In this document: positions 894-19,724 of the stretch, piece after piece | Numbering within the stretch: the first letter of the stretch is position 1 | Layout: the number at the start of each line of letters is the position of its first letter | Virus record (IMG/VR): IMGVR_UViG_3300037419_003078 | Length of the DNA: 20,000 nucleotides | Strand: one strand, 5' to 3' | From: an uncultured virus (IMG/VR IMGVR_UViG_3300037419_003078) | Lineage: Duplodnaviria > Heunggongvirae > Uroviricota > Caudoviricetes | Program-made: the position numbers and the translations under genes | The notes under the pieces: generated by a model | Told to the model about the DNA's origin: nothing | The model's database searches: none | What the model saw: the letters and a program-made list of their open reading frames with translations, nothing else

Positions 894-930
894 CTATATC
901 ACCTTCTTACGGTCTATTTTTAGATTATAT

Positions 931-989
931 ATCAACGGAGAGCAGAGGCTTGGAGAACTATGTTCTACTTGGTCATACCCTCCGTTAAT
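931..989 (-). other. Long intergenic RNA stem-loop (processing/stabilising element?)
   Basis: Minus strand ATTAACGGAGGGTA...TGCTCTCCGTTGAT gives a 14-bp stem with three G-U pairs and an inner AGAAC-ata-GTTCT hairpin; no U-tract; bracketed by dyad sites 907 and 990. Confidence 0.65.
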
Positions 990-1010
990 GAAAAGTTTAA
1001 TATTAGACTC

Positions 1011-2312
1011 TTATACTACTTGCTTAAACATATATGAGCCTAATTCTTCATCAAACATTACAAGTCTTTCGTGAGAGATATCTCTCATTAGTTGATTTGT
1101 TTTATCAACTGGAAGTCTTAATCTGTCACTAACCTTGCCAATCCAATCTGCTTCATTTTCACAATCTGTAATCTGTTGTAGAATGACAACCTCTAGAAGT
1201 TTATCTACATTTTCTCGGTCAATCATTCGTGGTGTATAGAGTTTTTCATCAATTTGTGACCATGACATACCATTGATTCTCATTAGTGATGAAGGTGTCA
1301 CTGACATCTTTTTAAGAATATCATATGCAACTGGATTGATATTGTAAATCTCACCTTTTAACCATCTGATTAAAGCACTTGTTCTTAATTGTAGGCTTTC
1401 AATATCATCTTGTTCTAAGTCTGTGCTATCACTTTCTCTATCTCCTGTTCCGAAGTTTACAAATTTATCAAAGATAGTTTTCTTGAAGTCGTATTCATCT
1501 TGTTTAATAGAGATGATACCACATTGAGATAAATCAATAGCCTTATGCAATAGGGCAACTTCTAAGGCAACTAGGGCAGTTGATACAGCAGGTGATAAGT
1601 GAGTGTCAGGGTGTCGAATCTCAACATGGAATGTAGACAATGTTCTATTTCTAAATCGACTGTGATTCATATTAAACATCTGATACTTACTGTATTTCTC
1701 ACTCATTTCTTCTTTGATGACACTCATTGGTGTATTAGTAGCCGAATAATCAAACGGTGGTCGTCTGAATAACACATATCTTGTTAATGCGTAGTCGTTA
1801 CAACCACCACTAGCAATCCAATATAGTTCGGGTGCAAAGATACGGTGTAACTGATAGAAGTTAGCTAAGATAATCTCAGGAACATCTCTTTCTAATTCTG
1901 TTACATCACTATTAGTATATCCTGCTAGTAAGTGAATGTGCATACCTGTATGATGTGAAGTATAGATGTCATGTTGTTGGAATGTATCCATGATATGTTG
2001 ATTCATATCATAGAATGTTTTCCAATCAAAACGTTTACCAACTGTTACAACCTCTACTCCATGTGGCACTGAACCATCTTCCATTACTTCTTTCACACCA
2101 TGTTCACCATGATGATGAATTGAGCGAGAAGGGTTAAGGGCATTATTGAAAGTGTCATAAACACTACTTAGGCTCTTATTTCTAGGAACTTGAACTTCAA
2201 ACTCCTCACCTACTTTTAAAATCTTACGAAACATCATTTGCCAATACTCAACATCTCTAGTAGTCAATCTACCTAATCTATCGTTAAATAATAAGTAATC
2301 AAACATTTTCAT
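1011..2312 (-). CDS. Putative amidoligase (glutamine synthetase/COOH-NH2 ligase fold), long type
   Basis: Motifs GEEFE, EDGS, GVEVVT, TGMHIH, HVEIR; start moved to ATG 2312 (MKMFDY) after RBS AAGGAGAG. Confidence 0.8.
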   Translation of the reverse strand: MKMFDYLLFNDRLGRLTTRDVEYWQMMFRKILKVGEEFEVQVPRNKSLSSVYDTFNNALNPSRSIHHHGEHGVKEVMEDGSVPHGVEVVTVGKRFDWKTFYDMNQHIMDTFQQHDIYTSHHTGMHIHLLAGYTNSDVTELERDVPEIILANFYQLHRIFAPELYWIASGGCNDYALTRYVLFRRPPFDYSATNTPMSVIKEEMSEKYSKYQMFNMNHSRFRNRTLSTFHVEIRHPDTHLSPAVSTALVALEVALLHKAIDLSQCGIISIKQDEYDFKKTIFDKFVNFGTGDRESDSTDLEQDDIESLQLRTSALIRWLKGEIYNINPVAYDILKKMSVTPSSLMRINGMSWSQIDEKLYTPRMIDRENVDKLLEVVILQQITDCENEADWIGKVSDRLRLPVDKTNQLMRDISHERLVMFDEELGSYMFKQVV

Positions 2313-2325
2313 TCGACATCTCTCC

Positions 2326-2466
2326 TTACAGTTCAATTATTTTAATATCTAATATTCTATCGTTTCTTTGAGCAAGATTTCTAATTGAATTTTTTTGTTC
2401 CTCGTTAGAAGGATATGGACTATATAAGTACCAACCTTCACCTCTAGTTAACAAGATTAAGTACAT
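2326..2466 (-). CDS. Small hypothetical protein (46 aa), not in ORF track
   Basis: MYLILLTRGEGWYLYSPYPSNEEQKNSIRNLAQRNDRILDIKIIEL; RBS AAGGAG; directly after promoter 2489-2517. Confidence 0.65.
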   Translation of the reverse strand: MYLILLTRGEGWYLYSPYPSNEEQKNSIRNLAQRNDRILDIKIIEL

Positions 2467-2488
2467 ATGGTCAACTCCTTATACTCTA

Positions 2489-2517
2489 AGTATATCATAT
2501 CAGTTTTCAACTGTCAA
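2489..2517 (-). promoter_or_regulatory. Sigma-A-type promoter
   Basis: TTGACA-gttgaaaactgatatga(17)-TATACT. Confidence 0.85.
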
Positions 2518-2538
2518 CTGTTTTTTTATAATTTATTA

Positions 2539-2781
2539 TTATACTGTAATCATTCCACAGGTTATTTCTAAGGAACGATATGGATTTTTTCCTTCATCTT
2601 TGAACTCGTAAAATACTCCGAATACCTCTAGTTCGCCTAGACCTTTTATGTTTAACGTATCACCACTACATATTTCCATTCCTAGTACATCTTCTGCGTT
2701 CTTGACTCGATACCATTTCTTATTAACAGTATCGCCTTCAAGTTCTTCTTCATAGACTTTCAATGTAACAATATGATACAA
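2539..2781 (-). CDS. Hypothetical protein, 'KGLGELEV' paralog family
   Basis: 80 aa, TTG start with RBS GGGGGAGGT; YRVKNAEDVLGMEICSGDTLNIKGLGELEV. Confidence 0.75.
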   Translation of the reverse strand: MYHIVTLKVYEEELEGDTVNKKWYRVKNAEDVLGMEICSGDTLNIKGLGELEVFGVFYEFKDEGKNPYRSLEITCGMITV

Positions 2782-2803
2782 GGCGACCTCCCCCTATCGT
2801 CTA

Positions 2804-3043
2804 TTATTCTACTATTTCACAAGATATTGCTATCTCTTGATATAAATAGTTCATTTGTGGGTAATCGTAGTTGTCTATGTTTAATGATATTACTTCTAAT
2901 TCTCCTAGCCCTTTTAGATAGAGAACATCACCTTCTTTTAACGCTATAATTTTTTCTAGATGATGTTCTGCATTTCTAATTGGAAAGGTTTTATGAGCGT
3001 GTTCTATACAAAAGTAAGCATAGCAGTCATAGTTATTCATCAT
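2804..3043 (-). CDS. Hypothetical protein, 'KGLGELEV' paralog family
   Basis: 79 aa; FPIRNAEHHLEKIIALKEGDVLYLKGLGELEV; tandem paralog of 2539..2781. Confidence 0.75.
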   Translation of the reverse strand: MMNNYDCYAYFCIEHAHKTFPIRNAEHHLEKIIALKEGDVLYLKGLGELEVISLNIDNYDYPQMNYLYQEIAISCEIVE

Positions 3044-3060
3044 ATCACCTTCAATCTTTT

Positions 3061-3558
3061 TTATATTATACCATAATCGTCAAAGTCGTCTGCTATTTCA
3101 TCTAAATAATAATTTGTATCCTCTTTTTTTACAACTCTTATGAAGTGTATATAGTAGTCATATATTTCTTGGTCTTTTCTTTGGCAAAGAGAACGATAAC
3201 TAAACTTGTATTCTTTACCGTCTAATTTTAGACTTAATTCTCTATCATACTCATTTGTTTTCTCAATTAGAAATTGACTGTTTTTTACTGGATAATGTTC
3301 TCCATTTATAACTAGATAAGCTTTTTCAGGTTTTGGTGTATTAACGTGACATCTAATACATTCTACGTTATTCTCAGAGCAATTAGAACATTTTCTTTGA
3401 CCACAATGAGTACATTCTGTCATACAGTCGTAACACATTACATCACCACAATCGTCACAAAAGCTAGCGTCCATTTCATATATTATACTACTGCAACTAC
3501 ATCTAACTGATGGACTAGTAATAGTTAAGCTATTCATGTATCTAGGCAATCTAATCAT
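3061..3558 (-). CDS. Cys-rich (multiple CxxC) zinc-binding hypothetical protein
   Basis: CSC, CDDC, CYDC, CTHC, CSNC, CIRC motifs in the N-terminal half; RBS GAGGAGTGA. Confidence 0.75.
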   Translation of the reverse strand: MIRLPRYMNSLTITSPSVRCSCSSIIYEMDASFCDDCGDVMCYDCMTECTHCGQRKCSNCSENNVECIRCHVNTPKPEKAYLVINGEHYPVKNSQFLIEKTNEYDRELSLKLDGKEYKFSYRSLCQRKDQEIYDYYIHFIRVVKKEDTNYYLDEIADDFDDYGII

Positions 3559-3562
3559 CTAA

Positions 3563-3832
3563 TCACTCCTCATTGAAGTATTCCTCTTTTGCTTTTTCGT
3601 ATACTCTTAATGGTATTTTATCTGCTAATTGAAAGGCTATTCTTTCATCTAATTCAAGAACTTCAATTAATCCTTCAATCTTGTCTTCATTGGGTATAAT
3701 CGAACCACGCTCAATTTCCATAGCATACTGTGGTGTAATTCCTACTCGTCTAGCCATCTCACTTCTTGTTAGATTTTTTTCTGCTCTCTTTGCTTTAATT
3801 AAGTCTGCGAATGTATTTACCATGTTGCTCAT
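3563..3832 (-). CDS. XRE/Cro-C1 family helix-turn-helix transcriptional regulator
   Basis: FADLIKAKRAEKNLTRSEMARRVGITPQYAMEIERGSIIP is a classic HTH_3 pattern; RBS AAAGGAGGT. Confidence 0.9.
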   Translation of the reverse strand: MSNMVNTFADLIKAKRAEKNLTRSEMARRVGITPQYAMEIERGSIIPNEDKIEGLIEVLELDERIAFQLADKIPLRVYEKAKEEYFNEE

Positions 3833-4086
3833 GTCTTACTACCTCCTTTTTCAATATTATACTCTTTTAGTTGATTATTGTCAACAGTTATTTTATTTCT
3901 TTCTCTGTCATATTTTACGTTGCTTAAAGCGTCATTAATTGAGTCCACCATGACTTCACTAATACAGTATTCAACTCCACCTGTAGCAATTCTTAATTCT
4001 TCTCTAGTTAATTCTAAGCCTTGTTCATTCGCATGGTCTAATATTTGATTTTCAATCATTTTCCTAAAAGTGTTTGGATATTTCAT
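3829..4086 (-). CDS. Hypothetical protein
   Basis: ORF with RBS AGAGGAG; ATG at 4086; the 3' end contains the promoter of the HTH gene. Confidence 0.7.
   Translation of the reverse strand: MKYPNTFRKMIENQILDHANEQGLELTREELRIATGGVEYCISEVMVDSINDALSNVKYDRERNKITVDNNQLKEYNIEKGGSKT
3856..3884 (-). promoter_or_regulatory. Perfect-consensus sigma-A promoter for the XRE HTH gene
   Basis: TTGACA-ataatcaactaaaagag(17)-TATAAT, inside the 3' end of the upstream ORF. Confidence 0.85.
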
Positions 4087-4114
4087 AATCAACCACTCCT
4101 CTTATAGTTTAATA

Positions 4115-4315
4115 TTAAAGTACAAAACTCTTATCTACTTTATGCTCTACTCTTGAAATACTTCTATCTATCGCCTTGATAACCTTCTCTAATACTTCTT
4201 CATTGTAGTCATCTAATTTTCCTACAAATTCAACTGCTAATCCAAACTCATGTGGTTCACAATTAGATGTGTATATTATAGTAGTACCGTCATATTCCAC
4301 TTCATATTTGTACAT
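4115..4315 (-). CDS. Small hypothetical protein, paralog of the C-terminal module of 4360..4806
   Basis: RBS AAGGAG, ATG 4315; MYKYEVEYDGTTIIYTSNCEPHEF...DYN...DKSF. Confidence 0.75.
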   Translation of the reverse strand: MYKYEVEYDGTTIIYTSNCEPHEFGLAVEFVGKLDDYNEEVLEKVIKAIDRSISRVEHKVDKSFVL

Positions 4316-4359
4316 ATTCAACACTCCTTATAGTATATTTTTATATCTTAATTTTATTC

Positions 4360-4806
4360 TTAAAAGTGAAAATCTTTGTTCGTACTTTTGTCTAAGTATT
4401 CTGCTTTATATCCTAACATTCTAATTATTTCAACAACTTGGTCTACGTTGTAATCTACACCATTTTCTTTTACCATGACTACAACTTTTTCAAATAAATC
4501 TTGTTCGCAATCAGTCTCAATAACAACCTTTTCATTATCCATCAATAGACCATATTTATTTTCCATCATAGGTGATTCCTCCTTAGAGTCTAATTTTAAA
4601 CTATTGTATGCTTTTGTTATTTCATGTTTAGACATTTCAAATACTCTTTTTCCGTGGTCAATATCCATCACTACTATATCATACATCTTATTTTTCAGTT
4701 TTGATTTTATAAGCATATGAAAGTATTCATCACTACCATCATCTACTTGACCATATCCTAAATTCATCAATCTATCTTTTTCTTCTGCCATTTGTATCTT
4801 ATCCAT
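4360..4806 (-). CDS. Hypothetical protein, apparent in-frame fusion of two small genes (second start ATG 4569)
   Basis: RBS AAGGAG with ATG 4806; internal dyad site 4583-4606 followed by AAGGAGG and in-frame ATGATG. Confidence 0.7.
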   Translation of the reverse strand: MDKIQMAEEKDRLMNLGYGQVDDGSDEYFHMLIKSKLKNKMYDIVVMDIDHGKRVFEMSKHEITKAYNSLKLDSKEESPMMENKYGLLMDNEKVVIETDCEQDLFEKVVVMVKENGVDYNVDQVVEIIRMLGYKAEYLDKSTNKDFHF

Positions 4807-4818
4807 ATTAATCACTCC

Positions 4819-4974
4819 TTATATGATTTCAATTTTGTCTAATTCATCTTTTGTTACAACAACTGCGTATTTATTACTGTATTCAAAGTCTATCCATACA
4901 CCTGAATTGACATAAACTATTGTTCCAATCTTACCTTTATATTTAACTTTCATACCTTTTTTAAGTTGTTCCAT
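4819..4974 (-). CDS. Small beta-rich (SH3/KOW-like) protein (51 aa), not in ORF track
   Basis: MEQLKKGMKVKYKGKIGTIVYVNSGVWIDFEYSNKYAVVVTKDELDKIEII; RBS AAGGAG. Confidence 0.7.
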   Translation of the reverse strand: MEQLKKGMKVKYKGKIGTIVYVNSGVWIDFEYSNKYAVVVTKDELDKIEII

Positions 4975-5004
4975 ACTAATCACTCCTTAAAGTTTATTTT
5001 TAGA

Positions 5005-5274
5005 TTACATATATCTAAAAAACTTCTCTACATTTTCGCTTTCTGATTCGTCATAACTTAGAATACATTGTGTTAACTCATACTTGTTGTATCTGTCTCT
5101 ATGTGCATTATATCCATCTTCACCATCATATCTCTCTATTACTTCATTAATAAATTCTTCTGCTTGTTCTCTAGACTCTAAGCCAAACTTAGATTTATAA
5201 GAATCGCAACTTCCACTGTGCCACTGTCCACTCATTTGTCTGTCAAATATTTTAACCAATGCTAACCATTTCAT
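5005..5274 (-). CDS. Hypothetical protein
   Basis: ORF track 92 aa; RBS AAGGAG spacing favours ATG 5274. Confidence 0.7.
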   Translation of the reverse strand: MKWLALVKIFDRQMSGQWHSGSCDSYKSKFGLESREQAEEFINEVIERYDGEDGYNAHRDRYNKYELTQCILSYDESESENVEKFFRYM

Positions 5275-5320
5275 AAACATCACTCCTTAGAGTATAATTT
5301 TAAATCCCAAAGAGCTAGCA

Positions 5321-6547
5321 TTAGCTAACTCTATGTCCATCACAATCTGCTAATTCATCTTTTAAATCATCACTCATGTAAGCGTTCATGATGTCAGTAT
5401 AACAACCACCGCAAACTCTTTCATCTTTTGGATTGCTTGAGTTGAAACTTGCCATCTTTTCTTCATCTGTCAACCATTCACCACACTCATAGCATAGTTC
5501 TTCATCTACTAATCCACTTCCATCATCTGCGTCAGTTATATCATCATTTGAGTAAATCATTACCTCACCTGTAACAGTGTCGATTTCACCTTCCAATACA
5601 AGTCCTTTACTATCTTTAGCAGTGACCGATTGGTACGAACTATTGTAGCCTGTTCCTGTCGTTGTTTTAGTAGTTGAAGTCGTGTTACTTTTATAGCTAT
5701 TGCTAGTGTATGTGTAGCTAGATGACTCAATGTAAAATCGTTCCTCCTTACTGATAGCGTCTTCTACAGTTGTAGCATTAGCGTTAATATTGAAGTAACG
5801 GTCAGGTGTAACTTTCATAATTTCTACTGTCTGTTTAGCATTAGTAATGCCTAATGTTTGACCTGCACGTTCTAACTTACGGAACGCTTTTGTGATATAA
5901 TCATCAATAGAGTTGAAGATGATAATTCCTGCCTCTTTCCAATAAGCTAAATGCATTGGCTTATCTTGTTTGATTAAGTGTAGCATATTAGGACTGTTTT
6001 TATGCACGAACGCTAGTGCGAATAATCCACGAAGTCTAGTAGTTTCTAACGCTTCTCTTAATCCATCTAATGTGATATCGTTATTATTATAATGGTTAAT
6101 AAGTTGGAATACAATCTCACTATCTACTTCACCAATACGAGTAAATTCATCTTTGTATTGAGTAAATAGTAAATCATCATTCTTAGCCGAACCGTTATGT
6201 AGTCCGACAACATTACCAATATCGAATGGGTGGTTATTGTTCATGTTCTCTGCTTTACCTTTAGTCATGTAGCGAGTATGAGCAATGATTACACTTGTTT
6301 GTTCTCCATCAAAGTTAGCTACAATCTCACGATATTTTTCATCTTCTGTTGTCATAGTATCTGCATTAATATTCTTTTTGTAGAACTCATATGAACCATC
6401 TCGTTTGAAACTTGCTAAACCTGTTGCGTGTTCACCTCTATCTTGAGTTTCAACCATTAATTCATCAAATACATAACGAATCTTAGCCATCATTTGAGCG
6501 TTACGTTCCACACCATTTAAAAGTACCATTCCATTAATTCCACACAT
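5321..6547 (-). CDS. Class II (Ntn) glutamine amidotransferase with S/T-rich linker and C-terminal CxxC..CxxC zinc finger
   Basis: MCGING..., DRGEHATG, AHTRYMT, NNHPF, LHNG, VDSE motifs; C-terminal CYECG/CGGC. Confidence 0.9.
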   Translation of the reverse strand: MCGINGMVLLNGVERNAQMMAKIRYVFDELMVETQDRGEHATGLASFKRDGSYEFYKKNINADTMTTEDEKYREIVANFDGEQTSVIIAHTRYMTKGKAENMNNNHPFDIGNVVGLHNGSAKNDDLLFTQYKDEFTRIGEVDSEIVFQLINHYNNNDITLDGLREALETTRLRGLFALAFVHKNSPNMLHLIKQDKPMHLAYWKEAGIIIFNSIDDYITKAFRKLERAGQTLGITNAKQTVEIMKVTPDRYFNINANATTVEDAISKEERFYIESSSYTYTSNSYKSNTTSTTKTTTGTGYNSSYQSVTAKDSKGLVLEGEIDTVTGEVMIYSNDDITDADDGSGLVDEELCYECGEWLTDEEKMASFNSSNPKDERVCGGCYTDIMNAYMSDDLKDELADCDGHRVS

Positions 6548-6597
6548 ATTATCAACAACCTTCCAGTTTTTATTTGTTTGTTTGTTTCTACTCTCTT

Positions 6598-6626
6598 AGT
6601 ATACTACATCAGTTTTAAATTGTCAA
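6598..6626 (-). promoter_or_regulatory. Sigma-A-type promoter
   Basis: TTGACA-atttaaaactgatgtag(17)-TATACT. Confidence 0.8.
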
Positions 6627-6651
6627 CTACTATTTTAAAGTTTCTTATAAT

Positions 6652-6801
6652 TTAATTTTCTACTGTATGATTTCTACCTACGTTCCAACTCCAAGCCATC
6701 AACTTCATAACTAAGTCATATCGTCTTTGATTGTTAAAGTCATAATTATATTTCTTATTAATTAGTGTTACATAGTGATTGTAAGTTTCTTCATTCATCA
6801 T
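6652..6801 (-). CDS. Small hypothetical protein (49 aa), not in ORF track
   Basis: MMNEETYNHYVTLINKKYNYDFNNQRRYDLVMKLMAWSWNVGRNHTVEN; RBS AAGGGAGGTG. Confidence 0.65.
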   Translation of the reverse strand: MMNEETYNHYVTLINKKYNYDFNNQRRYDLVMKLMAWSWNVGRNHTVEN

Positions 6802-6828
6802 GATGTCCACCTCCCTTAAAGTCTAATA

Positions 6829-6978
6829 TTATAAGCAACTACATAGTTTTCTATCATGTTGTCTTTGTTTCTTCTTGTGCATTTTTTTCTCTAATTGCCT
6901 TTGCAAGCTATTGTATCCTATCATCTTAGGAACTCTCTTGTCGAATGGATAAGACCATCTGCTATGACTCCTTTGCAT
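6829..6978 (-). CDS. Small basic hypothetical protein (49 aa), not in ORF track
   Basis: MQRSHSRWSYPFDKRVPKMIGYNSLQRQLEKKMHKKKQRQHDRKLCSCL; RBS AAGGAGGTGA. Confidence 0.6.
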   Translation of the reverse strand: MQRSHSRWSYPFDKRVPKMIGYNSLQRQLEKKMHKKKQRQHDRKLCSCL

Positions 6979-7022
6979 TATAATCACCTCCTTAAAGTTT
7001 AATTTTATATTTTAAATTCCCT

Positions 7023-7036
7023 AGCCCCGAAGGGCT
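7023..7036 (-). terminator. C(UUCG)G tetraloop hairpin after amidoligase gene (weak terminator or 3' stabiliser)
   Basis: Minus strand AGCCC-TTCG-GGGCT; no clear U-tract. Confidence 0.5.
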
Positions 7037-7048
7037 TATAGTATATTA

Positions 7049-7945
7049 TTAGATTGCTCTTGCTTGACGAGACTTTCTAATATTAATGTAGTCTTTTAAA
7101 TCATTATTGTAAATCTTAGGTGTGAACTCTAATCCAATCGACTCTGCTAATCGTTTGACCATTTCTTCTGCACTACTAGAGTTGTTAATACTTTCTGCAA
7201 TAAATTCTAATTGCTCTACACTAGAATGTTTGACTGTCTCAATTAAATGATAAGCTAGTAGACCGAATTTCTTAGCGTCACTAGAATCTCTAATTGCGTG
7301 GAATAATCTAAATTCAATAGTTCCTATTCCAGTATCAAACACATTAGCAAAGTTGTATCTATTCCAGTTAGGTAAACTTCTGTAATTACCACTTGATTGT
7401 TCTATTCTTGTCAATGAATACAGTAAGTTTCTAATGTTATCGTGATTATTGATGTTCAATCCTGTTTCTTGACATCTTCTTATAATAGTAGACCAAAGGC
7501 TATCCATAGGGCGACAATAACGATTACGTTGGTTTTCACGAGTACGTCTACTAGGTTTAACCATTAAGAACATCACATCATCTAGTTTTTCCATCAATAC
7601 TGCCATTTTAATTCGGTCAAGTAAAGTGTAGTCTCTAACATCAACATGAATATGTGTACCGGCTTTACCTCTGCCAACATTCCACTTTGTAGCTTGAATA
7701 TCTTCAAATATTTCATCTAACATATCTAACTTTGATAATGGTATTGATACAACTTCCATTCCTACATTGATACCGTCTACATGACGAGCGTTCCAACCAT
7801 AACTATTATTTAGACTGCCATCACGTTTTAAGTTTGAATGACGTACACCTTGCGATAACTTTGTAATATTCTTTGTATATCCTTCAACTTCAATTCCAAT
7901 AGTTCTATTTAATACGATACCCTTTAAGTTTAACTTTTTTGCCAT
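7049..7945 (-). CDS. Putative amidoligase (COOH-NH2 ligase fold), short type
   Basis: IGIEVE, RDGSL, GMEVVS, AGTHIHVD, TIEFR; start moved to ATG 7945 (MAKKL) after RBS GAGGAG. Confidence 0.85.
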   Translation of the reverse strand: MAKKLNLKGIVLNRTIGIEVEGYTKNITKLSQGVRHSNLKRDGSLNNSYGWNARHVDGINVGMEVVSIPLSKLDMLDEIFEDIQATKWNVGRGKAGTHIHVDVRDYTLLDRIKMAVLMEKLDDVMFLMVKPSRRTRENQRNRYCRPMDSLWSTIIRRCQETGLNINNHDNIRNLLYSLTRIEQSSGNYRSLPNWNRYNFANVFDTGIGTIEFRLFHAIRDSSDAKKFGLLAYHLIETVKHSSVEQLEFIAESINNSSSAEEMVKRLAESIGLEFTPKIYNNDLKDYINIRKSRQARAI

Positions 7946-7980
7946 TCGCCAACACTCCTCATAGTTTATTTTTAGATTGT

Positions 7981-8003: not shown

Positions 8004-8014
8004 ACCTTAACTCT

Positions 8015-12913: not shown

Positions 12914-12942
12914 GACTATCATCTCCTTGTTTTAATATAGTA

Positions 12943-12972
12943 AGTATATAACAATCTACTATCATCTGTCAA
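12943..12972 (-). promoter_or_regulatory. Sigma-A-type promoter (18-bp spacer)
   Basis: TTGACA-gatgatagtagattgtta-TATACT. Confidence 0.7.
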
Positions 12973-13006
12973 CTTAAAAGTTATGGTATAATTTTAGATT
13001 GTATGA

Positions 13007-13029
13007 GTAGGGCGTACTCGCCACCCTAC
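13007..13029 (-). other. GC-rich hairpin after amidoligase gene
   Basis: Plus strand GTAGGG-cgtactcgcca-CCCTAC, bracketed by dyad sites 12981 and 13031. Confidence 0.5.
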
Positions 13030-13043
13030 CTAACAGTCTAATA

Positions 13044-14246
13044 TTATATTGCTTCACTAATACTGCTAGTTGTTCTTAGAGAATTAACTATATTATTTCT
13101 TGCAATTCTATAAGTGTATTGGTTACATGGTCTAAAATTATACTCTAAACCTAGTAGTTCTTCCATTCTTTCTAGTAAAGTTGTTAAATTATCTACTGCA
13201 TAGAAGTCTTTTCCTATAACAATTAATTGCTCGAATGTAGTGTACTTAGCAAAGTTAACTAGCTTAGTACAAAAGTCAATCCATTGTTTTGCTTGGTCTC
13301 TATCTTCTGCTCCTTCAAAATATCTAAACTCAATAGTCTTACGGAAAAACCAAGAATGTAGATTTAGACCAAAATATCTTTGTTGTTCGTATTTAGAAAA
13401 GCCATCATTTAAATTTCTAGTAAAGCCATAATATTGATTAGCAATTTCTTGAAGTGTAATTTCTTCACCTCTTTCAATCAAATATTCTACCATATCTGCT
13501 TTAACCCTTCTGCAATAAGAACCATCTAGTCTATTTTTATCCATACTACCATAAATCATAGGCTCTAAGATGTTAACTAAGATAGCTAGTTTCGACAAGT
13601 CTTTTGGCTCTAATTCATGACCACCAATATGAACATGAGTTCCACAAGAATCATCTACATTCCAACCTCTATTTCCGATATAGTCAAATATTCTATCAAT
13701 ATAATCGTATTCACCTTCTACAATAATATTGCTCACACATTCAACTCCATATTTATCACCATCACCATGAGAACCTTCACCTTCACACTCACAACATTCT
13801 TCTGTAATTTCACCATGACCATTACAATCGTCACAATCTACTTGACCACGACAACAATCGTCACAATCATCATAACCTTCTTCACAATGTTCACAATGTA
13901 CAATTCCTGTTCCATCACATTCACCACATTCTATACTTTCACCATCTTCATCTATTACACCATGACCATCACAATCTTTACATTCTAGTTCATAGTTTCC
14001 ATCACATTCACAACAAGTAGTGTAGCCTTCACCACTACAATTATCACAATCTATATTCCCACTACCTCTACAAGTAGAACATTCACCAACAAATTCACCA
14101 CTACCATTACAATATTCACATTCTTCATTTTCATCTTCTAATGAACCATCATCAATTAGATTCCAACCTTGCACATAATTACCACGAATATTTTCATCTA
14201 CATAACCCTCTAACTCGATACCATACGTTAATTTTTTCTCACACAT
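13044..14246 (-). CDS. Putative amidoligase with a 10x CxxC(xGxG) DnaJ-type zinc-finger insertion
   Basis: YGIELE, DDGSL, [insertion], GVECVS, CGTHVHIG, RYFGLN, TIEFR; start moved to ATG 14246 (MCEKKL) after AAAGGAG. Confidence 0.85.
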   Translation of the reverse strand: MCEKKLTYGIELEGYVDENIRGNYVQGWNLIDDGSLEDENEECEYCNGSGEFVGECSTCRGSGNIDCDNCSGEGYTTCCECDGNYELECKDCDGHGVIDEDGESIECGECDGTGIVHCEHCEEGYDDCDDCCRGQVDCDDCNGHGEITEECCECEGEGSHGDGDKYGVECVSNIIVEGEYDYIDRIFDYIGNRGWNVDDSCGTHVHIGGHELEPKDLSKLAILVNILEPMIYGSMDKNRLDGSYCRRVKADMVEYLIERGEEITLQEIANQYYGFTRNLNDGFSKYEQQRYFGLNLHSWFFRKTIEFRYFEGAEDRDQAKQWIDFCTKLVNFAKYTTFEQLIVIGKDFYAVDNLTTLLERMEELLGLEYNFRPCNQYTYRIARNNIVNSLRTTSSISEAI

Positions 14247-14278
14247 TCTGCCCAACTCCTTTATAAGTTTATAATTCA

Positions 14279-14307
14279 ATAATACACTATCAGTTATCAA
14301 CTGTCAA
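14279..14307 (-). promoter_or_regulatory. Sigma-A-type promoter
   Basis: TTGACA-gttgataactgatagtg(17)-TATTAT. Confidence 0.8.
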
Positions 14308-14345
14308 CATAAATTTAAAAATAATTATAATTTAATATTTTATTG

Positions 14346-14525
14346 TTAAGAATAGAATTTCTTAACTATAATTTTACCTCTTATTTCTCCAACTAATTCC
14401 CAACCATTTTTACCAATGATATTTAACATTTCTACGAACCCATCATGATAGCCTGTTCCTTGAAAAGTATAAACATTTACATCACCGTATCCTTGACGAA
14501 TATCTATTTCTTCATATTTAAACAT
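14346..14525 (-). CDS. Small hypothetical protein
   Basis: RBS AAGGAG; contains LNIIGKNGWELV (LN..G..GWELV pattern common in small phage proteins). Confidence 0.7.
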   Translation of the reverse strand: MFKYEEIDIRQGYGDVNVYTFQGTGYHDGFVEMLNIIGKNGWELVGEIRGKIIVKKFYS

Positions 14526-14550
14526 GAACATCTCTCCTTATAATTTAATT

Positions 14551-14697
14551 TTAGACTATAATTTCTTCAACCTCAACTCTATCTGCATACGTTGTTCGCC
14601 TAATTTCTGTACGTTGTTCAATGGTAGGATTAAAACTAACTTGAACACCGAATACACGACTACTACCATAAATTAGTATAATATTATACCTTATCAT
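14551..14697 (-). CDS. Small hypothetical protein (48 aa), not in ORF track
   Basis: MIRYNIILIYGSSRVFGVQVSFNPTIEQRTEIRRTTYADRVEVEEIIV; RBS GAGGT; ATGA overlap with the upstream gene; weak resemblance to 2326..2466. Confidence 0.6.
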   Translation of the reverse strand: MIRYNIILIYGSSRVFGVQVSFNPTIEQRTEIRRTTYADRVEVEEIIV

Positions 14698-14843
14698 GAT
14701 TCAACCTCTGTCTTTCTGATTAGTTGCCAACTTGTATAAAGAACAACTAAACTACCCAATATACTAGTAGCACTAAAATAATCACTAGCAACTATTTTTA
14801 ATTCACTATTTGTTCTTTTATTCTTAAAAATATATTCTGTCAT
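14694..14843 (-). CDS. Small hypothetical protein (49 aa), not in ORF track
   Basis: MTEYIFKNKRTNSELKIVASDYFSATSILGSLVVLYTSWQLIRKTEVES; RBS AAGGAGTGG. Confidence 0.65.
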   Translation of the reverse strand: MTEYIFKNKRTNSELKIVASDYFSATSILGSLVVLYTSWQLIRKTEVES

Positions 14844-14919
14844 AATATCCACTCCTTAATATAGTATATTATTTGATTAAGTCGCCTAGAACTATTTTAT
14901 CCTAAGCGACTATAATATA

Positions 14920-15333
14920 TTAATAGACTTCTAAGTTATTAGTCCACTTGATAAAGTTAGAACGTAACAACTCATTAACTTTTTCCTCAATTTCCATAAC
15001 ACTTCTTCTACCTAAGTTTCTAACTCTAATTATAGCGTTATAGTCTAATTTTAGAATATCTTCTATCTTATTAATTCCCCCACGCTTTAAACAATTGAAT
15101 GAACGAACTGATAAATCTAAGTATTCTATCTCAATTTCCCCAAAATTTTCTATGTGTTCGTTAAGTTCTTTATTAACAGGAACTTCAACATAAACAGTAT
15201 TCTCAATGACTTGTTGTTCTTGTTGATTATGCTTAGATACATAGTCTAATAAGAAACTATAAGCCTTTTCATCAGTATCAAAATGTATAGACATATCATT
15301 AACAGTAACAATATTACCACTAATCTGTATCAT
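14920..15333 (-). CDS. RNA polymerase alpha-subunit C-terminal-domain (alpha-CTD) homologue with unrelated N-terminal domain
   Basis: IEYLDLSVRSFNCLKRGGINKIEDIL...VRNLGRRSVMEI closely matches Bacillus RpoA [25 protein letters not shown]...VRNLGRKSLEEV; no alpha-NTD. Confidence 0.9.
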   Translation of the reverse strand: MIQISGNIVTVNDMSIHFDTDEKAYSFLLDYVSKHNQQEQQVIENTVYVEVPVNKELNEHIENFGEIEIEYLDLSVRSFNCLKRGGINKIEDILKLDYNAIIRVRNLGRRSVMEIEEKVNELLRSNFIKWTNNLEVY

Positions 15334-15746
15334 GCTATTTCTTCCTCCTTAGATTTTAATAATAGACTATAAACATCTTCACGAGTAACATTGAAATTAT
15401 CATAATAATCTTCTTCATATCTGCTTTCAGAATTGCTAAAATACTTATCACATTTATCTCTTAACTTATCATGATTTACTTTCTTAACTATAGGTAGATT
15501 AGCTTGAAGTTTCATTAAATCTCCTATTTCATGCTTTACAAGTCTTCTAGTCTGACATATTTCTTGAATCTTTTTAGCATAATTATAACCTTCACTAGCA
15601 CTAAAATTATCTATTTCAATAGCATGGTAAGTACTAGATAATTCTTTATCTAACATAGATTGCATTTCTTGAAGGCTTTTTAACTGTGTTTCAATTAATT
15701 CAAAGTTAACCATTAAATCCCTGTAAATATCTTTAGCTAATTTCAT
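15330..15746 (-). CDS. Coiled-coil hypothetical phage protein
   Basis: 138 aa, heptad-rich; RBS AAGGGGAG; ATGA-coupled to the alpha-CTD gene. Confidence 0.75.
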   Translation of the reverse strand: MKLAKDIYRDLMVNFELIETQLKSLQEMQSMLDKELSSTYHAIEIDNFSASEGYNYAKKIQEICQTRRLVKHEIGDLMKLQANLPIVKKVNHDKLRDKCDKYFSNSESRYEEDYYDNFNVTREDVYSLLLKSKEEEIA

Positions 15747-15842
15747 TCCCCTGTTCTCCCCTTATAATATATTATTCGACTATTGAATAGTCGCAAGTAC
15801 CTAGGATATAATTTTATACCCTAAGCACTAACCATTATTCAA

Positions 15843-15908
15843 TCAATCTTCTAAACGTTCTACTTCTTCACCGAATAACATTAAAGCAAATTCAACTAAG
15901 ATAGACAT
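15843..15908 (-). CDS. Possible 21-aa peptide
   Basis: MSILVEFALMLFGEEVERLED directly after promoter 15939-15967; RBS GAGAGGTG is somewhat distant. Confidence 0.35.
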   Translation of the reverse strand: MSILVEFALMLFGEEVERLED

Positions 15909-15938
15909 TAACAACCTTGTTCACCTCTCAATAACAAC

Positions 15939-15967
15939 ATTCTAGTATATAAGTATTCAACTGTCAA
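15939..15967 (-). promoter_or_regulatory. Sigma-A-type promoter
   Basis: TTGACA-gttgaatacttatatac(17)-TAGAAT. Confidence 0.75.
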
Positions 15968-16116
15968 CTGAAAAATAACTTCTTTTTCATTTTTTCAAAC
16001 CATCTTTCAAACGGGGGGCAGAATAGATAGAGTAAGAATATAATAAAAAACCCTAATGACGCATAACCGATAATGATAAGAAAGATATATAACCCATATA
16101 AAGATTGAAATAACAT
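15964..16116 (-). CDS. Small membrane protein (50 aa), not in ORF track
   Basis: MLFQSLYGLYIFLIIIGYASLGFFIIFLLYLFCPPFERWFEKMKKKLFFS; RBS AAGGAG. Confidence 0.65.
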   Translation of the reverse strand: MLFQSLYGLYIFLIIIGYASLGFFIIFLLYLFCPPFERWFEKMKKKLFFS

Positions 16117-16148
16117 ATAAACACTCCTTATAATATAATTTTAGACTA

Positions 16149-16304
16149 CTATAATACTGTTAATGGTATACTTGCTACATAACAATCATACTTAGAATAC
16201 TTTTCTTTTCTAACTAGTTCTGCGTCTTCTTTATTAACATATATATTCCAATCTGCTACTTCATCACCGTTAGTAAAAATAATCATAAACATAAATTCGT
16301 GCAT
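16149..16304 (-). CDS. Small hypothetical protein (51 aa), not in ORF track
   Basis: MHEFMFMIIFTNGDEVADWNIYVNKEDAELVRKEKYSKYDCYVASIPLTVL; RBS AAGGAGGTGA. Confidence 0.65.
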   Translation of the reverse strand: MHEFMFMIIFTNGDEVADWNIYVNKEDAELVRKEKYSKYDCYVASIPLTVL

Positions 16305-16305
16305 A

Positions 16306-16797
16306 TTATTTCACCTCCTTATAATCTAATTTTAGATGTTTATCTAAGAACCTATAAGCATTAATACCACATACTACAATACAAGCAATAAGCCTAGTCA
16401 TATCACCTTTAGCACTATAATCTAATCCAAGCCCAAAGAATGTAGTAAACAAGAATACATTGTAATACTTATGACCAATACCATAAGAGATATAATCCCA
16501 AACCTTTCTAATTGAAAAGCCTTTATAACTCTTATAATCTCTAGCTAGTATTTGAATCTCTAACTCAATTCTATCTAGTTTAAACCAAGTTTCATCTAGT
16601 TCTCTGTCGTTTCTACCTTCAAACGAATTAATTTCACTGTTAAACTCATATTTGTTGTATCTCCAAAGATAATTTTTATAGTCTCTTAATTGACTATATT
16701 CATTGAACAACTTATCAATCTTAACATAAGCACTTTCTGTTAATGTATTCATATCAATTTCAGTTTTACCAATTACACGAATATCTACCTTTTTCAT
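16306..16797 (-). CDS. Hypothetical protein with two C-terminal hydrophobic segments
   Basis: ATG 16797 after AGGAGTGGGG; VFLFTTFFGLGL and LIACIVVCGINAY segments. Confidence 0.7.
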   Translation of the reverse strand: MKKVDIRVIGKTEIDMNTLTESAYVKIDKLFNEYSQLRDYKNYLWRYNKYEFNSEINSFEGRNDRELDETWFKLDRIELEIQILARDYKSYKGFSIRKVWDYISYGIGHKYYNVFLFTTFFGLGLDYSAKGDMTRLIACIVVCGINAYRFLDKHLKLDYKEVK

Positions 16798-16881
16798 TTT
16801 CCCCACTCCTAAGTATAATATTAGACTCTAACAGTCTAGGCTACTTATGATATAAAATTCAATCATAAGCAGATAACACCG

Positions 16882-17295
16882 TTAGATAATTATTATATTC
16901 GGTCTATCTTTTACATAATCACATTGTTTACAGATACCATCTTCCATAATATCATAGAAGGAATAGCATTTTTTACACCTAGGTTTTCTTTCATCTAGTA
17001 TTGATTCATTACCGTTAACAATTTCAATTAGTTGAATACCTTGCATAAGTGCAACCCTATTCATTGTCATTTCTTGATAAAATATTCTTGATGTACTTTC
17101 ATACTCAAATTCATCTCTAAATTGCTTACCGTTATTATCTTTATAAGCTACAATATATTTTTCTACTTTAACTTCATTTTCTGCATTTTCAATAATCCCC
17201 AATATCATACTATCATTGTAAAAGTCAGCATTGTCATAGATAACAGATAACAACTTTAATAGTTCCTCATGGTTTAAATGTGATAAGTCTTTCAT
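16882..17295 (-). CDS. Hypothetical protein with C-terminal CxxC..CxxC zinc finger
   Basis: CKKC...CKQC; RBS AAGGGAGAG. Confidence 0.75.
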   Translation of the reverse strand: MKDLSHLNHEELLKLLSVIYDNADFYNDSMILGIIENAENEVKVEKYIVAYKDNNGKQFRDEFEYESTSRIFYQEMTMNRVALMQGIQLIEIVNGNESILDERKPRCKKCYSFYDIMEDGICKQCDYVKDRPNIIII

Positions 17296-17378
17296 CTCAA
17301 TCTCTCCCTTATAATTTAATATTAAATCATTCCTACCTACAATCTAATTTTAGATTATAGATAGAGTATCATTTAATA

Positions 17379-17561
17379 TTATATCGTTACACTTGAATTA
17401 GGTGGGAATAGTAATACTTTCCCTTTCAAGTAGTCATCTTGAGACTGTTTATCTAATCTTTCCTCTACAAATTCCCTAGCCTCTCCTTCATCTTCAAAAC
17501 TTGCACACTCAAAGTTCCAAGTAGAAATATTGTAATAAGTCACTATCCAATCTTTATTCAT
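17379..17561 (-). CDS. Small hypothetical protein
   Basis: 60 aa; RBS AGGAGG. Confidence 0.7.
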   Translation of the reverse strand: MNKDWIVTYYNISTWNFECASFEDEGEAREFVEERLDKQSQDDYLKGKVLLFPPNSSVTI

Positions 17562-17585
17562 CTCTATTCCTCCTAAAGTATAATA

Positions 17586-18197
17586 TTATACTGTATATTG
17601 AACTTGACTCTTAGGTATCCAACCTTCCCAAGTAACATTCTTAATAGTCGTTAACATCTCATTGTATCTATCTTTTAGTTCTTTTTCAGTGTTACAAGGA
17701 TTAATATGAAAGTGTCCACCACATACAGGACCTAGCCCATACATTAAAGATACTGGGTGTGTTAATGTTCGGTTACAATGTAGACAATTACTAGATGGTT
17801 GTAACAATCCATTCAATTTAACTTTAATAGCTTTATTAGTTTCTTGTAATATAACACCTTCCATAGTTCTCATAGGTATTGGGTTTCTATTACTATTAGT
17901 TGCTCTAGTTAACCATTGACGAACTTTAAATATAGTCTTCTTTTCGACTGTAGCGACTGTATTTTCTTTTGTGAAGTCGAATAAGTCGAATGTAGCCAAA
18001 CCACTTTTATCATTAACTTCTACTGCCCAATCATTACTAATCTTTTCGCAAATATCCTCTACTCTATCACTATAGATAGCTTGAATAGTAAACGATAACC
18101 ATGAACCATGTAAAGAACTTTCATTCCAATTAAACTGTGCTCCTCCACCTAATAATAATTTCATATTCTCTCTAGCAACTGGTAAAGTTACTTTCAT
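17586..18197 (-). CDS. Two-domain protein with DUF6011-like zinc motif
   Basis: CLHCNRTLTHPVSLMYGLGPVC fits CxxCxRxLTxPxSxxxGxGPxC; start moved to ATG 18197 (MKVTL) after AAGGGGAG. Confidence 0.75.
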   Translation of the reverse strand: MKVTLPVARENMKLLLGGGAQFNWNESSLHGSWLSFTIQAIYSDRVEDICEKISNDWAVEVNDKSGLATFDLFDFTKENTVATVEKKTIFKVRQWLTRATNSNRNPIPMRTMEGVILQETNKAIKVKLNGLLQPSSNCLHCNRTLTHPVSLMYGLGPVCGGHFHINPCNTEKELKDRYNEMLTTIKNVTWEGWIPKSQVQYTV

Positions 18198-18236
18198 CTT
18201 AATATCTCCCCTTATAGTATAATATTTAACTATATG

Positions 18237-18266
18237 AAAGGAATGAGTAGCTAACCTCATTCCCTT
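18237..18266 (-). terminator. Hairpin after amidoligase gene (possible terminator)
   Basis: Minus strand AAGGGAATGAG-gttagcta-CTCATTCCTTT; bracketed by dyad sites 18212 and 18267. Confidence 0.55.
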
Positions 18267-18284
18267 TTATAATCTAATATTATA

Positions 18285-19613
18285 TCAATCTCCCATATAG
18301 ATTAAGCGACCACCTAAGAACTCTATATCAACATTTTCACGTTTGAACATCTGATATAATGACTTAACTTTCTTTTCTTCAACATCTAAGAACATAGCCA
18401 TGTTCTCATGAAATTCATTCAAGCTATCTGCAAACGGTACACTCATAGACTTAATTGCTACTAAGAATTTTTCTCTCAAAGTATCATCACTAGCACGATT
18501 GCGAGTATTAAACACTCTTTCAATTAGTTCTGTGTTCCAATGTGTATCATGACCATTTTCAGTTAACCATTGACTAATAGGACATTTGATTAATTTATCC
18601 ATAACTTCAACTGCTTCAAGTGAGTTGATAACTTTTAAGTATTTTGCTAAGTATGATACAAATTCTTTGTATAGTTGTTCTAATTTTGTACGGTCAACAT
18701 TGTCATAACCTCGTCTGTGTTGTTGCATTAACTCATATGATAATTCAACATCATTTTCAGTAAAGTTGAATTTTAGACCGTTGCGGGAAAAGTCGATAGC
18801 TAATAAAGTGATAGCCTTGTTAATGGATAACCACATAGCTAAGTGAGTAGCATTAAAAGTAGTATCACACATTCTATTTTCAAAGTGTACATAATCTATA
18901 CCACTGAAAATTCTTAAATATGAATCTCTACTCATTTGAGATAGATAACTATTTGATTGAGGTGTAATAACATTGTTAGCGTCATCAGTACGACCATATG
19001 CTCTCCACCAATAGAACAAGTCATCATTATTAAGTAAGTCGTATGAACTACCACGAACACCTCTAGCCCCACGTTTATCAGTCATAACCAACCATTTCAT
19101 AACAGGCATGAACTTAATAAAGAATTTAGCTACTGTATTGTAAATAGGTTTGTTGTCTAACTTAATTGTACTAGCGTATTCATGTCTATCTCTATCGTAC
19201 ATATATGATACTGTGTTATGAACATGAACAGAACCCATTTTAGTATGGTACACTCCACCACTAGCTTGCTTGTAAGTATCTAAGATACCGTTAAGATATA
19301 ATTTTAGATTATCCCAACCGATTAAATCAATCGGACTTGCAGATGTTTCAGTACCATAAATACCACCGTTATCATTTGAATAACTAGTTAATGAACCATC
19401 ATGATGAACATCATTATTCCAACCGTTACCATCATTTAAATGTTCTTGAGTAGCGAACCCTCTACCAATTGCCCCAAGTTTAGAACTAATTGTACTTTCA
19501 GAATAAGTTGTCATAGCTTCAACCTCAAACGATTGAGTAACAAGCCCTGCAATACCTTTTAATGTGCTACCTGCTTTTGCCATTTTGTCCTCAAAGAATT
19601 TTTCTTTTGTCAT
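18285..19613 (-). CDS. Putative amidoligase (COOH-NH2 ligase fold), long divergent type; paralog of 1011..2312
   Basis: SFEVE, HDGSL, GTETS, GSVHVH, HFENR; C-terminal half aligns with the 1011 gene (AIDFSRNG vs AIDLSQCG); RBS AAGGAG. Confidence 0.75.
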   Translation of the reverse strand: MTKEKFFEDKMAKAGSTLKGIAGLVTQSFEVEAMTTYSESTISSKLGAIGRGFATQEHLNDGNGWNNDVHHDGSLTSYSNDNGGIYGTETSASPIDLIGWDNLKLYLNGILDTYKQASGGVYHTKMGSVHVHNTVSYMYDRDRHEYASTIKLDNKPIYNTVAKFFIKFMPVMKWLVMTDKRGARGVRGSSYDLLNNDDLFYWWRAYGRTDDANNVITPQSNSYLSQMSRDSYLRIFSGIDYVHFENRMCDTTFNATHLAMWLSINKAITLLAIDFSRNGLKFNFTENDVELSYELMQQHRRGYDNVDRTKLEQLYKEFVSYLAKYLKVINSLEAVEVMDKLIKCPISQWLTENGHDTHWNTELIERVFNTRNRASDDTLREKFLVAIKSMSVPFADSLNEFHENMAMFLDVEEKKVKSLYQMFKRENVDIEFLGGRLIYMGD

Positions 19614-19655
19614 TTTTCAACATCTCCTTATGATATAATTTTAAATTTTAAAGCT

Positions 19656-19679
19656 TTCAGTGATAAGTTATCCACTGAA
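19656..19679. other. Intergenic hairpin
   Basis: TTCAGTG-ataagttatc-CACTGAA between dyad sites 19628 and 19686. Confidence 0.45.
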
Positions 19680-19724
19680 TAATGATTATAGTCGAATATT
19701 AAATTTTTGAGTCGGGGAAAAGGA

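Follow-up and report, generated by a model that had tools for sequence, protein, structure and literature searches.

The stretch of DNA analysed here (the window, 20,000 nt) belongs to the uncultured virus IMGVR_UViG_3300037419_003078 (Caudoviricetes) and carries a 24-bp near-palindrome that recurs about once per 300 bp. The window has a GC content of 31% and about 42 genes, all on the minus strand, including three recognisable amidoligases, a glutamine amidotransferase, a gamma-glutamyl cyclotransferase, an XRE regulator, a protein with an RNA polymerase alpha-CTD domain, and many small open reading frames (ORFs) of no recognised function. Its proteins lie on a 166,133-bp contig, which occurs in soil and rhizosphere metagenomes. 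INPHARED holds no near DNA match to the window, and no cultured relative was found in the collections searched (best terminase identity 30.5%). Homologues of a 442-aa ORF of the window occur on contigs of up to 178 kb, one of which belongs to a Paenibacillus xylanexedens assembly, from which we infer a Bacillales host; searches found no relative of its family among plasmids and none in GTDB genomes.

Our comparisons rely on three uncultured relatives, G001 (158 kb), G002 (158 kb) and G003 (146 kb), whose records are 76–89% complete, and all genome-wide statements come from these three and not from the window's own genome. G001 shares about 60% protein identity with the window, and the GC content is about 40% in G002 and 47% in G003, so that the motif is kept across 31–47% GC. 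The G001 gene set comprises a terminase, capsid, Pol III alpha, RecA, an ERF annealase, RuvB, an actin-like protein, translocase-like ATPases and one XerD-like recombinase; most of these genes are also present in G002 and G003. The family is thus a large phage that can probably persist as a plasmid.

Number and sequence of the sites

Allowing up to three mismatches, the pattern proposed in an earlier note on this DNA gave 53 strand-hits, against a mean of 0.13 in 30 dinucleotide shuffles. A position weight matrix (PWM) converges on 65 sites in the window and a symmetrised PWM on 66, where about 0.1 would be expected by chance in 20 kb. The note had counted about 45 copies and placed them at gene junctions. 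The motif itself stands far above shuffles, while the count was too low, and the placement holds for 44 sites; 21–22 further sites, which the note had not reported, lie wholly inside ORFs (at least 30 nt from both ends). The sites are as follows.

907..19709, minus strand: array of 24-bp pseudo-palindromic sites
Boundary sites, start positions: 907, 990, 2526, 2794, 4102, 4328, 4987, 5287, 6645, 6992, 7036, 7959, 8051, 9352, 9558, 10304, 10738, 10764, 11198, 11432, 11643, 11757, 12480, 12981, 13031, 14325, 14538, 14671, 14910, 15349, 15762, 15801, 16128, 16319, 16808, 16845, 17309, 17337, 17366, 17573, 18212, 18267, 19628, 19686
Weaker copies, start positions: 2342, 6816, 9850, 14859
22 in-ORF sites, minus strand, start positions (3215..19314): 3215, 4031, 4583, 8179, 8258, 10034, 10079, 10524, 11110, 11271, 12128, 12613, 13125, 13472, 13678, 15038, 15239, 16033, 16676, 17148, 18760, 19291

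Read from the centre outward, the half-site is W-T-T-M-K-A-Y-Y-N-T-A-A. Across the 94 in-gene sites of the four genomes, the corresponding frequencies are W, T 81%, T 91%, A/C, G/T, A 99%, Y, Y, N, T 81%, A 64% and A 47%, and the information ends at +12. With a conserved A/T centre between them, the invariant bases are spaced by 11 bp, which we take to be the geometry of dimeric helix-turn-helix (HTH) proteins. Individual copies are degenerate (mean pairwise identity 15.0/24), and the coding-strand cores of the 65 sites are AAAATT (21), AATATT (17), AAAAAT (8), AATAAT (5), ATTATT (4), AATTTT (2) and eight singletons.

The motif has no match in Rfam for this window, and pattern scans of IMG/VR gave one match in G001 and three single matches in unrelated records, which we take as chance. 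Literature searches with narrow term sets, covering open-access literature, returned no description of the motif or the family, which does not prove their absence; the motif has no mention in the accessible portions of PMC4113786 and PMC12007190.

Position at gene boundaries and polarity

Site density is about 4.4 times higher at gene boundaries than in gene interiors (44 in 6,399 positions versus 21 in 13,578). A site ends within 22 nt upstream of 25 of the 41 gene starts, and 23 of 42 gene ends fall in or next to a site. Stop codons lying wholly inside the 66 sites number 22, matching the earlier claim of at least 22; of the nine that were said to share an identical offset, eight belong to these sites and the ninth (6829) lies in the weak site 6816 (10.7–11.5 bits). 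As 130 of the 198 site-frames meet a stop inside the site, 36 of these at the shared offset, this offset is mostly built into the consensus. It therefore needs no cassette explanation, and we dropped it as evidence for cassettes.

The core is polar with transcription. On the coding strand, the centre reads AA rather than TT in a ratio of 36:5 in the in-gene sites of the four genomes, against 72:66 in chance hits, and of 17:0 in the window sites adjacent to a Shine-Dalgarno (SD) sequence. The two inverted copies reported earlier, 16845 and 13125, are indeed inverted, and further ones lie at 8179, 11110, 11757, 15239, 15349 and 16033. At 16845–16868, the flanks are nearly identical to those of G001 position 154527 and the site centre is apparently inverted, possibly by a loop micro-inversion.

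In-gene copies and their turnover

A PWM derived solely from the 44 boundary sites recovers 21 interior sites, against a mean of 0.27 (maximum 1) in 100 codon-order shuffles; against synonymous shuffles, the comparison is 21 versus 3.2. One in-ORF site, 4583, precedes an internal SD and ATG and is really a junction that is read through in frame.

In 13 orthologous gene pairs of the window and G001, the position in G001 that aligns with a window in-gene site scores under 10 bits for 7 of 13 sites, and the window position that aligns with a G001 in-gene site does so for 5 of 11; two of these 12 lost or gained sites miss narrowly (9.1 bits) and two lie in poorly aligned stretches. Gains and losses are mostly substitutions, with homology on both sides and no breakpoint. 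Because they are gained and lost by point substitution in collinear orthologues, the in-gene sites are not recombination scars. Three examples are listed here.

18760..18783, minus strand: site inside the 442-aa ORF, with no counterpart in the collinear orthologue of G001 (18.6 versus -4.8 bits)
19291, minus strand: second site inside the 442-aa ORF, likewise without a counterpart in G001 (14.8 versus -14.4 bits)
15038..15061, minus strand: in-gene site in the alpha-CTD ORF; 20 of 24 bases are as in G001, yet the site is absent there (15.3 versus 0.8 bits)

Judged from sequence comparison, this is the pattern of sites that would be selected as double-stranded DNA, inside genes as well as between them. 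A separate case is the ORF at 16882–17295, in which two ORFs that G001 keeps apart, at a distance of 2 kb, are fused, with the in-gene site 17148 at the fusion point.

Distribution across relatives

The PWM built on the window only finds 59, 25 and 17 sites in G001, G002 and G003, none in three structural-region fragments, and two in 74 distant viral loci (1.03 Mb). A symmetric PWM trained on all four genomes finds 75, 54 and 45 sites in the three relatives (shuffles 0–3). In G001, the counts per 10 kb are 1, nine successive intervals with 0, and then 3, 5, 6, 8, 25 and 27; in G002, they are 7, 5, 7, 17, 4, 4, 1, 0, 0, 0, 1, 1, 2, 1, 3 and 1. Both genomes have density gradients that peak at the start of the amidoligase block, in the early arm as in the window. 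G003 is laid out differently: its 45 sites (shuffles 0–1) occur about once per 3.2 kb, with 2–6 in every 10 kb, at a spacing more even than random (coefficient of variation of the gaps 0.65, p=0.002), and 27 lie within ORFs, including portal, tail and polymerase genes. The G003 record stops before the region where G001 and G002 peak. There are no exact pattern matches in SPbeta, 0305phi8-36, Basilisk and three Bacillus phage-plasmids.

Promoters and hairpins

The window has its own sigma-A-type promoters, and many of its junctions are predicted to fold.

472..15967, minus strand: sigma-A-type promoters with TTGACA at 500, 2517, 3884, 6626, 8043, 9000, 9084, 10708, 12972, 14307 and 15967 (consensus match only; shared spacer motif)
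18212..18290, minus strand: example of a site-hairpin-site junction (RNA folding, prediction only)
6992–7059, 7959–8074, 12981–13054, 14859–14933, 15762–15824, 16808–16868 and 10738–10787: similar predicted hairpins (RNA folding)

Six of the 11 window promoters have an upstream site over their A-rich UP region; the gaps between the end of the site and TTGACA are 7, 8, 8, 17, 18 and 29 nt, and the corresponding gaps in G001 are 7, 7 and 8 nt. In G003, five of 21 sigma-A promoters have a site within 45 nt, against 4.5% of random spans (p=0.002), and in four of these five the site lies over the spacer or the -10.

The suggestion that the site may be simply a promoter -10 element was rejected. No conserved -35 stands upstream of the SD-adjacent sites (at most 0.25 bit per position over 40 nt), the window has the separate TTGACA promoters listed above, and on the coding strand the first T of the putative -10 is present in 66% and the sixth in 64%; most G003 in-gene half-sites have G first, so that G003 is mostly without TA there. 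A hairpin acting as RNA or single-stranded DNA was likewise rejected: as the arms barely covary (5.23 pairs of 9 within a site versus 4.99 with the arms of other sites, p=0.026), the element is a duplex site and not a stem. The position 8/17 pairs less often than expected.

Common to the promoters of this arm (window 500–15967; G001 133–154 kb) are an A-rich tract upstream and a spacer motif that contains a 5-3-5 dyad, which could be a second operator or reflect a duplicated promoter family; such promoters were found in neither G002 nor G003. Another promoter class, CC-TTGAC(A/T)-17-TATAAT followed by an ATAARTATAA-like stretch, has 21, 18 and 11 copies in the replication and accessory regions of G001, G002 and G003 and none in the window. 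The predicted hairpins between the paired sites at 14859–14933, 15762–15824 and 16808–16868 are built of inverted half-site copies, mostly without a U-tract.

A putative operator array

With moderate confidence, we propose that the 24-bp element is a binding site for a dimeric phage-encoded protein, which would keep the early arm silent while the phage persists as a plasmid, or switch it off once the early phase is over. Such a protein, most likely of the HTH type, would bind the duplex 24-mer, and selection would keep many copies: before SD sequences (which would supply the terminal TAA of adjoining sites), over stops, over promoter UP elements and inside reading frames. The bound protein would most likely damp or shut off transcription of the early/accessory arm through a combination of promoter cover and polar roadblocks, much like stoperators. 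A dense binding array for a dimeric phage protein was one of two possibilities raised in the earlier note, and it is supported by the in-gene copies, their turnover by point mutation, the polarity, and the even spacing and promoter overlap in G003.

Several observations weigh against this proposal. Repression would need far fewer sites than one per 300 bp. The polarity may stem in part from codon usage (p=0.01 against an assumed expectation of 71%), and the symmetrised PWM was trained on the genomes that it scans, the counts of the window-only PWM being smaller. A site lies near only 2 of 33 sigma-A promoters in G001 and 4 of 30 in G002, where the random rates are 4% and 6%; with overlap near the random rate, the strong replication-gene promoters of these two genomes are not covered. 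Finally, no candidate gene has a clear autoregulatory site at its promoter in all relatives.

Two window proteins come into view as binders.

3563..3832, minus strand: XRE-family HTH protein, 89 aa, present in all three relatives (75, 50 and 40% identity)
14920..15333, minus strand: alpha-CTD protein, 137 aa, with an RNA polymerase alpha-CTD domain; G001 orthologue at 153003–153422

In the XRE protein, the recognition-helix residues T33, Q35, Y36, I40 and E41 do not vary among 16 close homologues. By analogy with the 434 repressor, an XRE dimer would fit contacts at +4 to +7 that flank an A/T hexamer left uncontacted, albeit post hoc. A further candidate, found in G001–G003, is a 132-aa winged helix (wHTH) with a long C-terminal helix and a conserved S-R-R wing (predicted local distance difference test score, pLDDT, 92.5). 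The wings of a winged-helix dimer would suit the outer TA at +10/+11, again post hoc. Searches of PDB sequences gave nothing specific for either the wHTH or the XRE protein, and an Atlas/fold search places the wHTH only generically. A protein with a ribbon-helix-helix tail and the XerD-like enzyme, both present in all three relatives, are also candidates. The alpha-CTD protein was rejected as the general binder, as it was not found in the motif-bearing G002 and G003 (both records incomplete). In its G001 orthologue, the N-terminal part weakly resembles the phi29 late activator p4 (Pfam E 3e-5, PHROG E 1e-4), the window orthologue having no p4 match at E 0.01; the protein may be a decoy, or else an activator joined to the domain that it targets.

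The wHTH protein is central to an alternative in which the array is architectural, a phage protein coating, bridging or tethering the genome for centromere-like anchoring, compaction or self-marking. The even spacing in G003 and the smooth gradients of G001 and G002, which run regardless of gene boundaries, would follow from it, and the gene for this putative winged-helix/coiled-coil binder lies, in each of the three relatives, 2.5–7 kb upstream of an actin-like segregation gene. In the fold search, this protein matched the pNOB8 centromere-binding protein and Sso10a-2 alongside MarR-type folds; the matches are weak and generic (E 5e-4 to 3e-3, template modelling score about 0.4–0.6). Such an array predicts neither polarity with transcription nor the promoter overlap of G003, and it sits poorly with the roughly 90 kb of G001 that are without a site. 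Moreover, the ParB domain (PF02195) is found in none of the three relatives (records incomplete), and the wHTH gene was not seen in the window's own genome. We regard an architectural array as unlikely, though it should be kept in mind.

Gene gain and loss at the sites

The gene content of the window and G001 is strongly different. Nine gain, loss or replacement events could be traced by hand, and seven have a site at both ends, the exceptions being an HNH gene and a gene swapped behind a promoter. Since a site is present at about 55% of starts (25/41, 18/37), roughly 0.3 site-bounded events would be expected per event by a hand estimate. These nine events are few and not independent, and large non-homologous blocks were unscorable. 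In five clean indels, listed here, the empty allele carries a single site.

17366..17596, minus strand: 60-aa ORF (17379–17561) between sites 17573 and 17366; G001 has one site (155852), and the homologue lies about 1 kb away
17309..17332, minus strand: single site; G001 has two sites around an extra 50-aa ORF
5287..5310, minus strand: single site; G001 has two sites around an extra 60-aa ORF
907..930, minus strand: single site; G001 has two sites around an extra 45-aa ORF
4583..5010, minus strand: window-specific DNA between sites 4987 and 4583; G001 has one site (143002)

These observations bear on the other possibility of the earlier note, an integron-like array of cassettes, and on a proposal in which the sites are targets of a XerD-like recombinase that would cut out and insert single-gene modules in the way of integron cassettes or pdif modules, acting as a homodimer on 9-bp arms with a 6-bp overlap, the in-gene copies being secondary. 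The 9-6-9 geometry would suit it, as would the high share of site-bounded events and the single-site empty alleles. The tyrosine recombinase that the note had asked for exists: one XerD-like gene with intact R-K-H-R-H-Y residues was found in six of seven family records searched, and a homologue, P0071, is apparently also on the window's 166,133-bp contig. In two of the five indels, the switch falls within a site. At 17573/17366, the G001 site 155852 has a left arm like that of 17573 and a right flank like that of 17366, with an identical core in all three; at 907, the left arm matches the upstream partner at 8/9 positions and the right arm the downstream partner at 7/9.

The traced breakpoints do not, however, all point to the 6-bp core. 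Three of the five indels allow a crossover at any point from the core to the start codon, and at 5287 the likeness to the upstream partner runs through the right arm, so that this crossover need not lie in the hexamer. An identical 15-nt leader after the site precedes unrelated genes. Junctions with sites are broken in 17 of 21 cases versus 4 of 7 without, which is not significant (Fisher p=0.32). The half-site itself also argues against recombinase targets, as +4/+5 vary while the hexamer positions +2/+3 are 81–91% fixed, the reverse of dif, and so do sites that arise by point mutation within conserved genes or lie in the portal, tail and polymerase genes of G003. If dozens of direct repeats were active, the arm would, in addition, be deleted.

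The enzyme scores as XerC/D-like (142 and 127 bits, against an integron-integrase cut-off of 265 bits). Its gene is a neighbour of the terminase genes and, in G002, stands about 37 kb away from where the array is densest; a search for a separate dif-like target gave no conserved candidate. The stretch that aligns with what we take to be the XerD specificity helix differs among relatives that share the motif. By eye, the A at +6 and the TA at +10/+11 resemble what we believe to be the XerD arm. On balance, a site-specific shuffling system of this kind seems to us rather unlikely. A variant in which the XerD-like recombinase is itself the binder, acting as a roadblock on dozens of dif-like sites and rarely recombining pairs of them, so that it both silences and shuffles modules, is decidedly unlikely; if true, it would amount to an integron-like gene-capture system in a phage, with Xer chemistry on double-stranded sites.

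Under the operator proposal, the site and the SD leader would form a repeated unit of 30–40 bp, with about 65% identity at gene starts, that would secondarily direct where genes are gained and lost through homeologous recombination; G001 encodes both RecA and an ERF annealase. The exchanged unit does look like a site plus leader, as for the PeSLs discussed below. In contigs from four of 12 metagenome runs, those near-identical to the window show no variant letters. Fifteen of 74 contig joints, mostly with sides of 21–53 letters and at depths unlike that of the window's strain, are as expected for other family members or for repeats at 85% likeness. Contigs drop rare variants, and contig joints therefore bear neither way on excision.

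Activator and host-factor explanations

The site could instead be a positive element, either an activator site or a phage-specific promoter giving short transcripts gene by gene. Taken over the window and G001, the gaps between site and TTGACA keep a helical phase (Rayleigh R=0.95), many junctions read site-hairpin-site-SD, the relatives have one or two sigma factors, and G001 encodes the p4-like alpha-CTD protein. The phase is not independent evidence, as the promoters are paralogous and the 7–8-nt gap can follow from the arm TATAA overlapping the A-rich UP element. There is no information upstream of the SD-adjacent sites, the element is a contiguous and not a bipartite dyad, in-gene and inverted copies occur, and sites in the -35/-10 spacers of G003 would block rather than activate. 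A positive element is in our view very improbable.

Binding by a host (Bacillales) protein exploited by the phage would explain why the motif is kept across the GC range of the family though the candidate regulators diverged, and is the most improbable of the explanations given the lack of exact matches in the six Bacillus-type elements named above and the two matches in 1.03 Mb of distant viral loci. We know of no Bacillus regulator with this consensus.

Comparison with known systems

The stoperators of Cluster A phages are 13-bp asymmetric sites with up to about 30 copies per genome, bound by a two-domain monomeric repressor of the L5 gp71 type (PMC6550527, PMC9283540); they are mostly in one orientation relative to transcription, and some lie at promoters (PMC6550527). 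The 66 window sites resemble them in being many copies of one site, mainly in one orientation to transcription (AA:TT 36:5 and 17:0). Unlike stoperators, they are 24-bp dyads with symmetric invariant positions and a polar core, and, at 65 in 20 kb, several times denser. Pfam scans of 41 window and 150 G001 proteins named no gp71-type repressor; no search with a gp71 profile was made.

The PeSLs of the T4-type phages RB49 and phi1 are intergenic units of about 100 bp that combine a promoter and a stem-loop, and mini-circles have been shown for them (PMC2839356). The likeness lies in repeats at the junctions of variable regions and in two elements around a gene versus one chimeric element in a relative (five clean indels). 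Here, the element is a 24-bp dyad and not a promoter, and a third of the copies lie in coding sequence. SPBRE of SPbeta is a 15-bp motif with ten peaks, all in promoter regions, and its repressor MrpR has a catalytically dead tyrosine-recombinase fold (PMC10516654). Both are repeated elements of a large phage, SPBRE being repressor-bound in a Bacillus temperate phage (PMC10516654). In contrast to MrpR, the XerD-like protein here is catalytically intact by its residues, and the window pattern has no match in SPbeta.

Like dif and attC sites (PMC2731167, PMC9892861) and, as we take it, pdif sites, the window sites have inverted arms around a hexamer and flank single genes, and a XerD-like gene is present. 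In dif (11-6-11), conservation is highest in the arm bases that adjoin the hexamer, and the hexamer itself is variable (PMC2731167); in the window, information ends at +12, the inner arm bases vary and the hexamer is conserved. The arms do not covary as an attC hairpin would (PMC9892861), and the recombinase differs from that of an integron in scoring far below the integrase cut-off and in not lying next to the array. Phage 0305phi8-36 has a 21-bp motif with 14 non-coding copies in its non-structural arm, which were read as promoters (PMC2147016). It shares with this family convergent arms, actin-like, relaxase and translocase genes, and a repeated motif in the non-structural arm (PMC2147016). 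The window pattern has no match in that genome. KorB operators of IncP-1 plasmids serve silencing and partition (PMC11790492). They resemble the present sites as dispersed palindromes on an extrachromosomal element; the present sites differ in being far more numerous and in occurring in three relatives (records incomplete) without a ParB domain.

Other genes of the window and its relatives

The window also carries an amidoligase cluster.

1011–2312, 5321–6547, 7049–7945, 8064–8939, 11778–12464, 13044–14246 and 18285–19613: amidoligase cluster

It comprises the three Pfam amidoligases, the amidotransferase, the gamma-glutamyl cyclotransferase and two proteins (433 and 442 aa) with amidoligase-like motifs by eye and without a Pfam match. 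The 433-aa protein is 84% identical to its G001 counterpart, far above the neighbouring genes. A long DnaJ-like CxxCxGxG repeat insert splits the amidoligase at 13044–14246, and joints in a co-occurring relative fall within this insert, which suggests a variable repeat number. In G001, the regions 106343–107362, 112053–116490 and 119267–120247 encode the actin-like protein, TraG/VirB4-like and coupling-protein-like ATPases, and a nicking-type replication or relaxation protein, and they recall the translocation operon of 0305phi8-36; a PDB sequence search with the relaxase-like protein gave no specific match.

Significance

Dispersed phage repressor sites are known, with stoperators at about one per 2 kb and SPBRE at about ten in a genome. 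The window has a site every 300 bp, written into protein sequence as well, and there are two layouts in one family. These layouts, a steep gradient in one arm and an even genome-wide grid, raise the question of what would favour covering a phage genome with a DNA-binding protein. Small genes are also gained and lost at these sites, so that a regulatory element may double as a joint for gene exchange.

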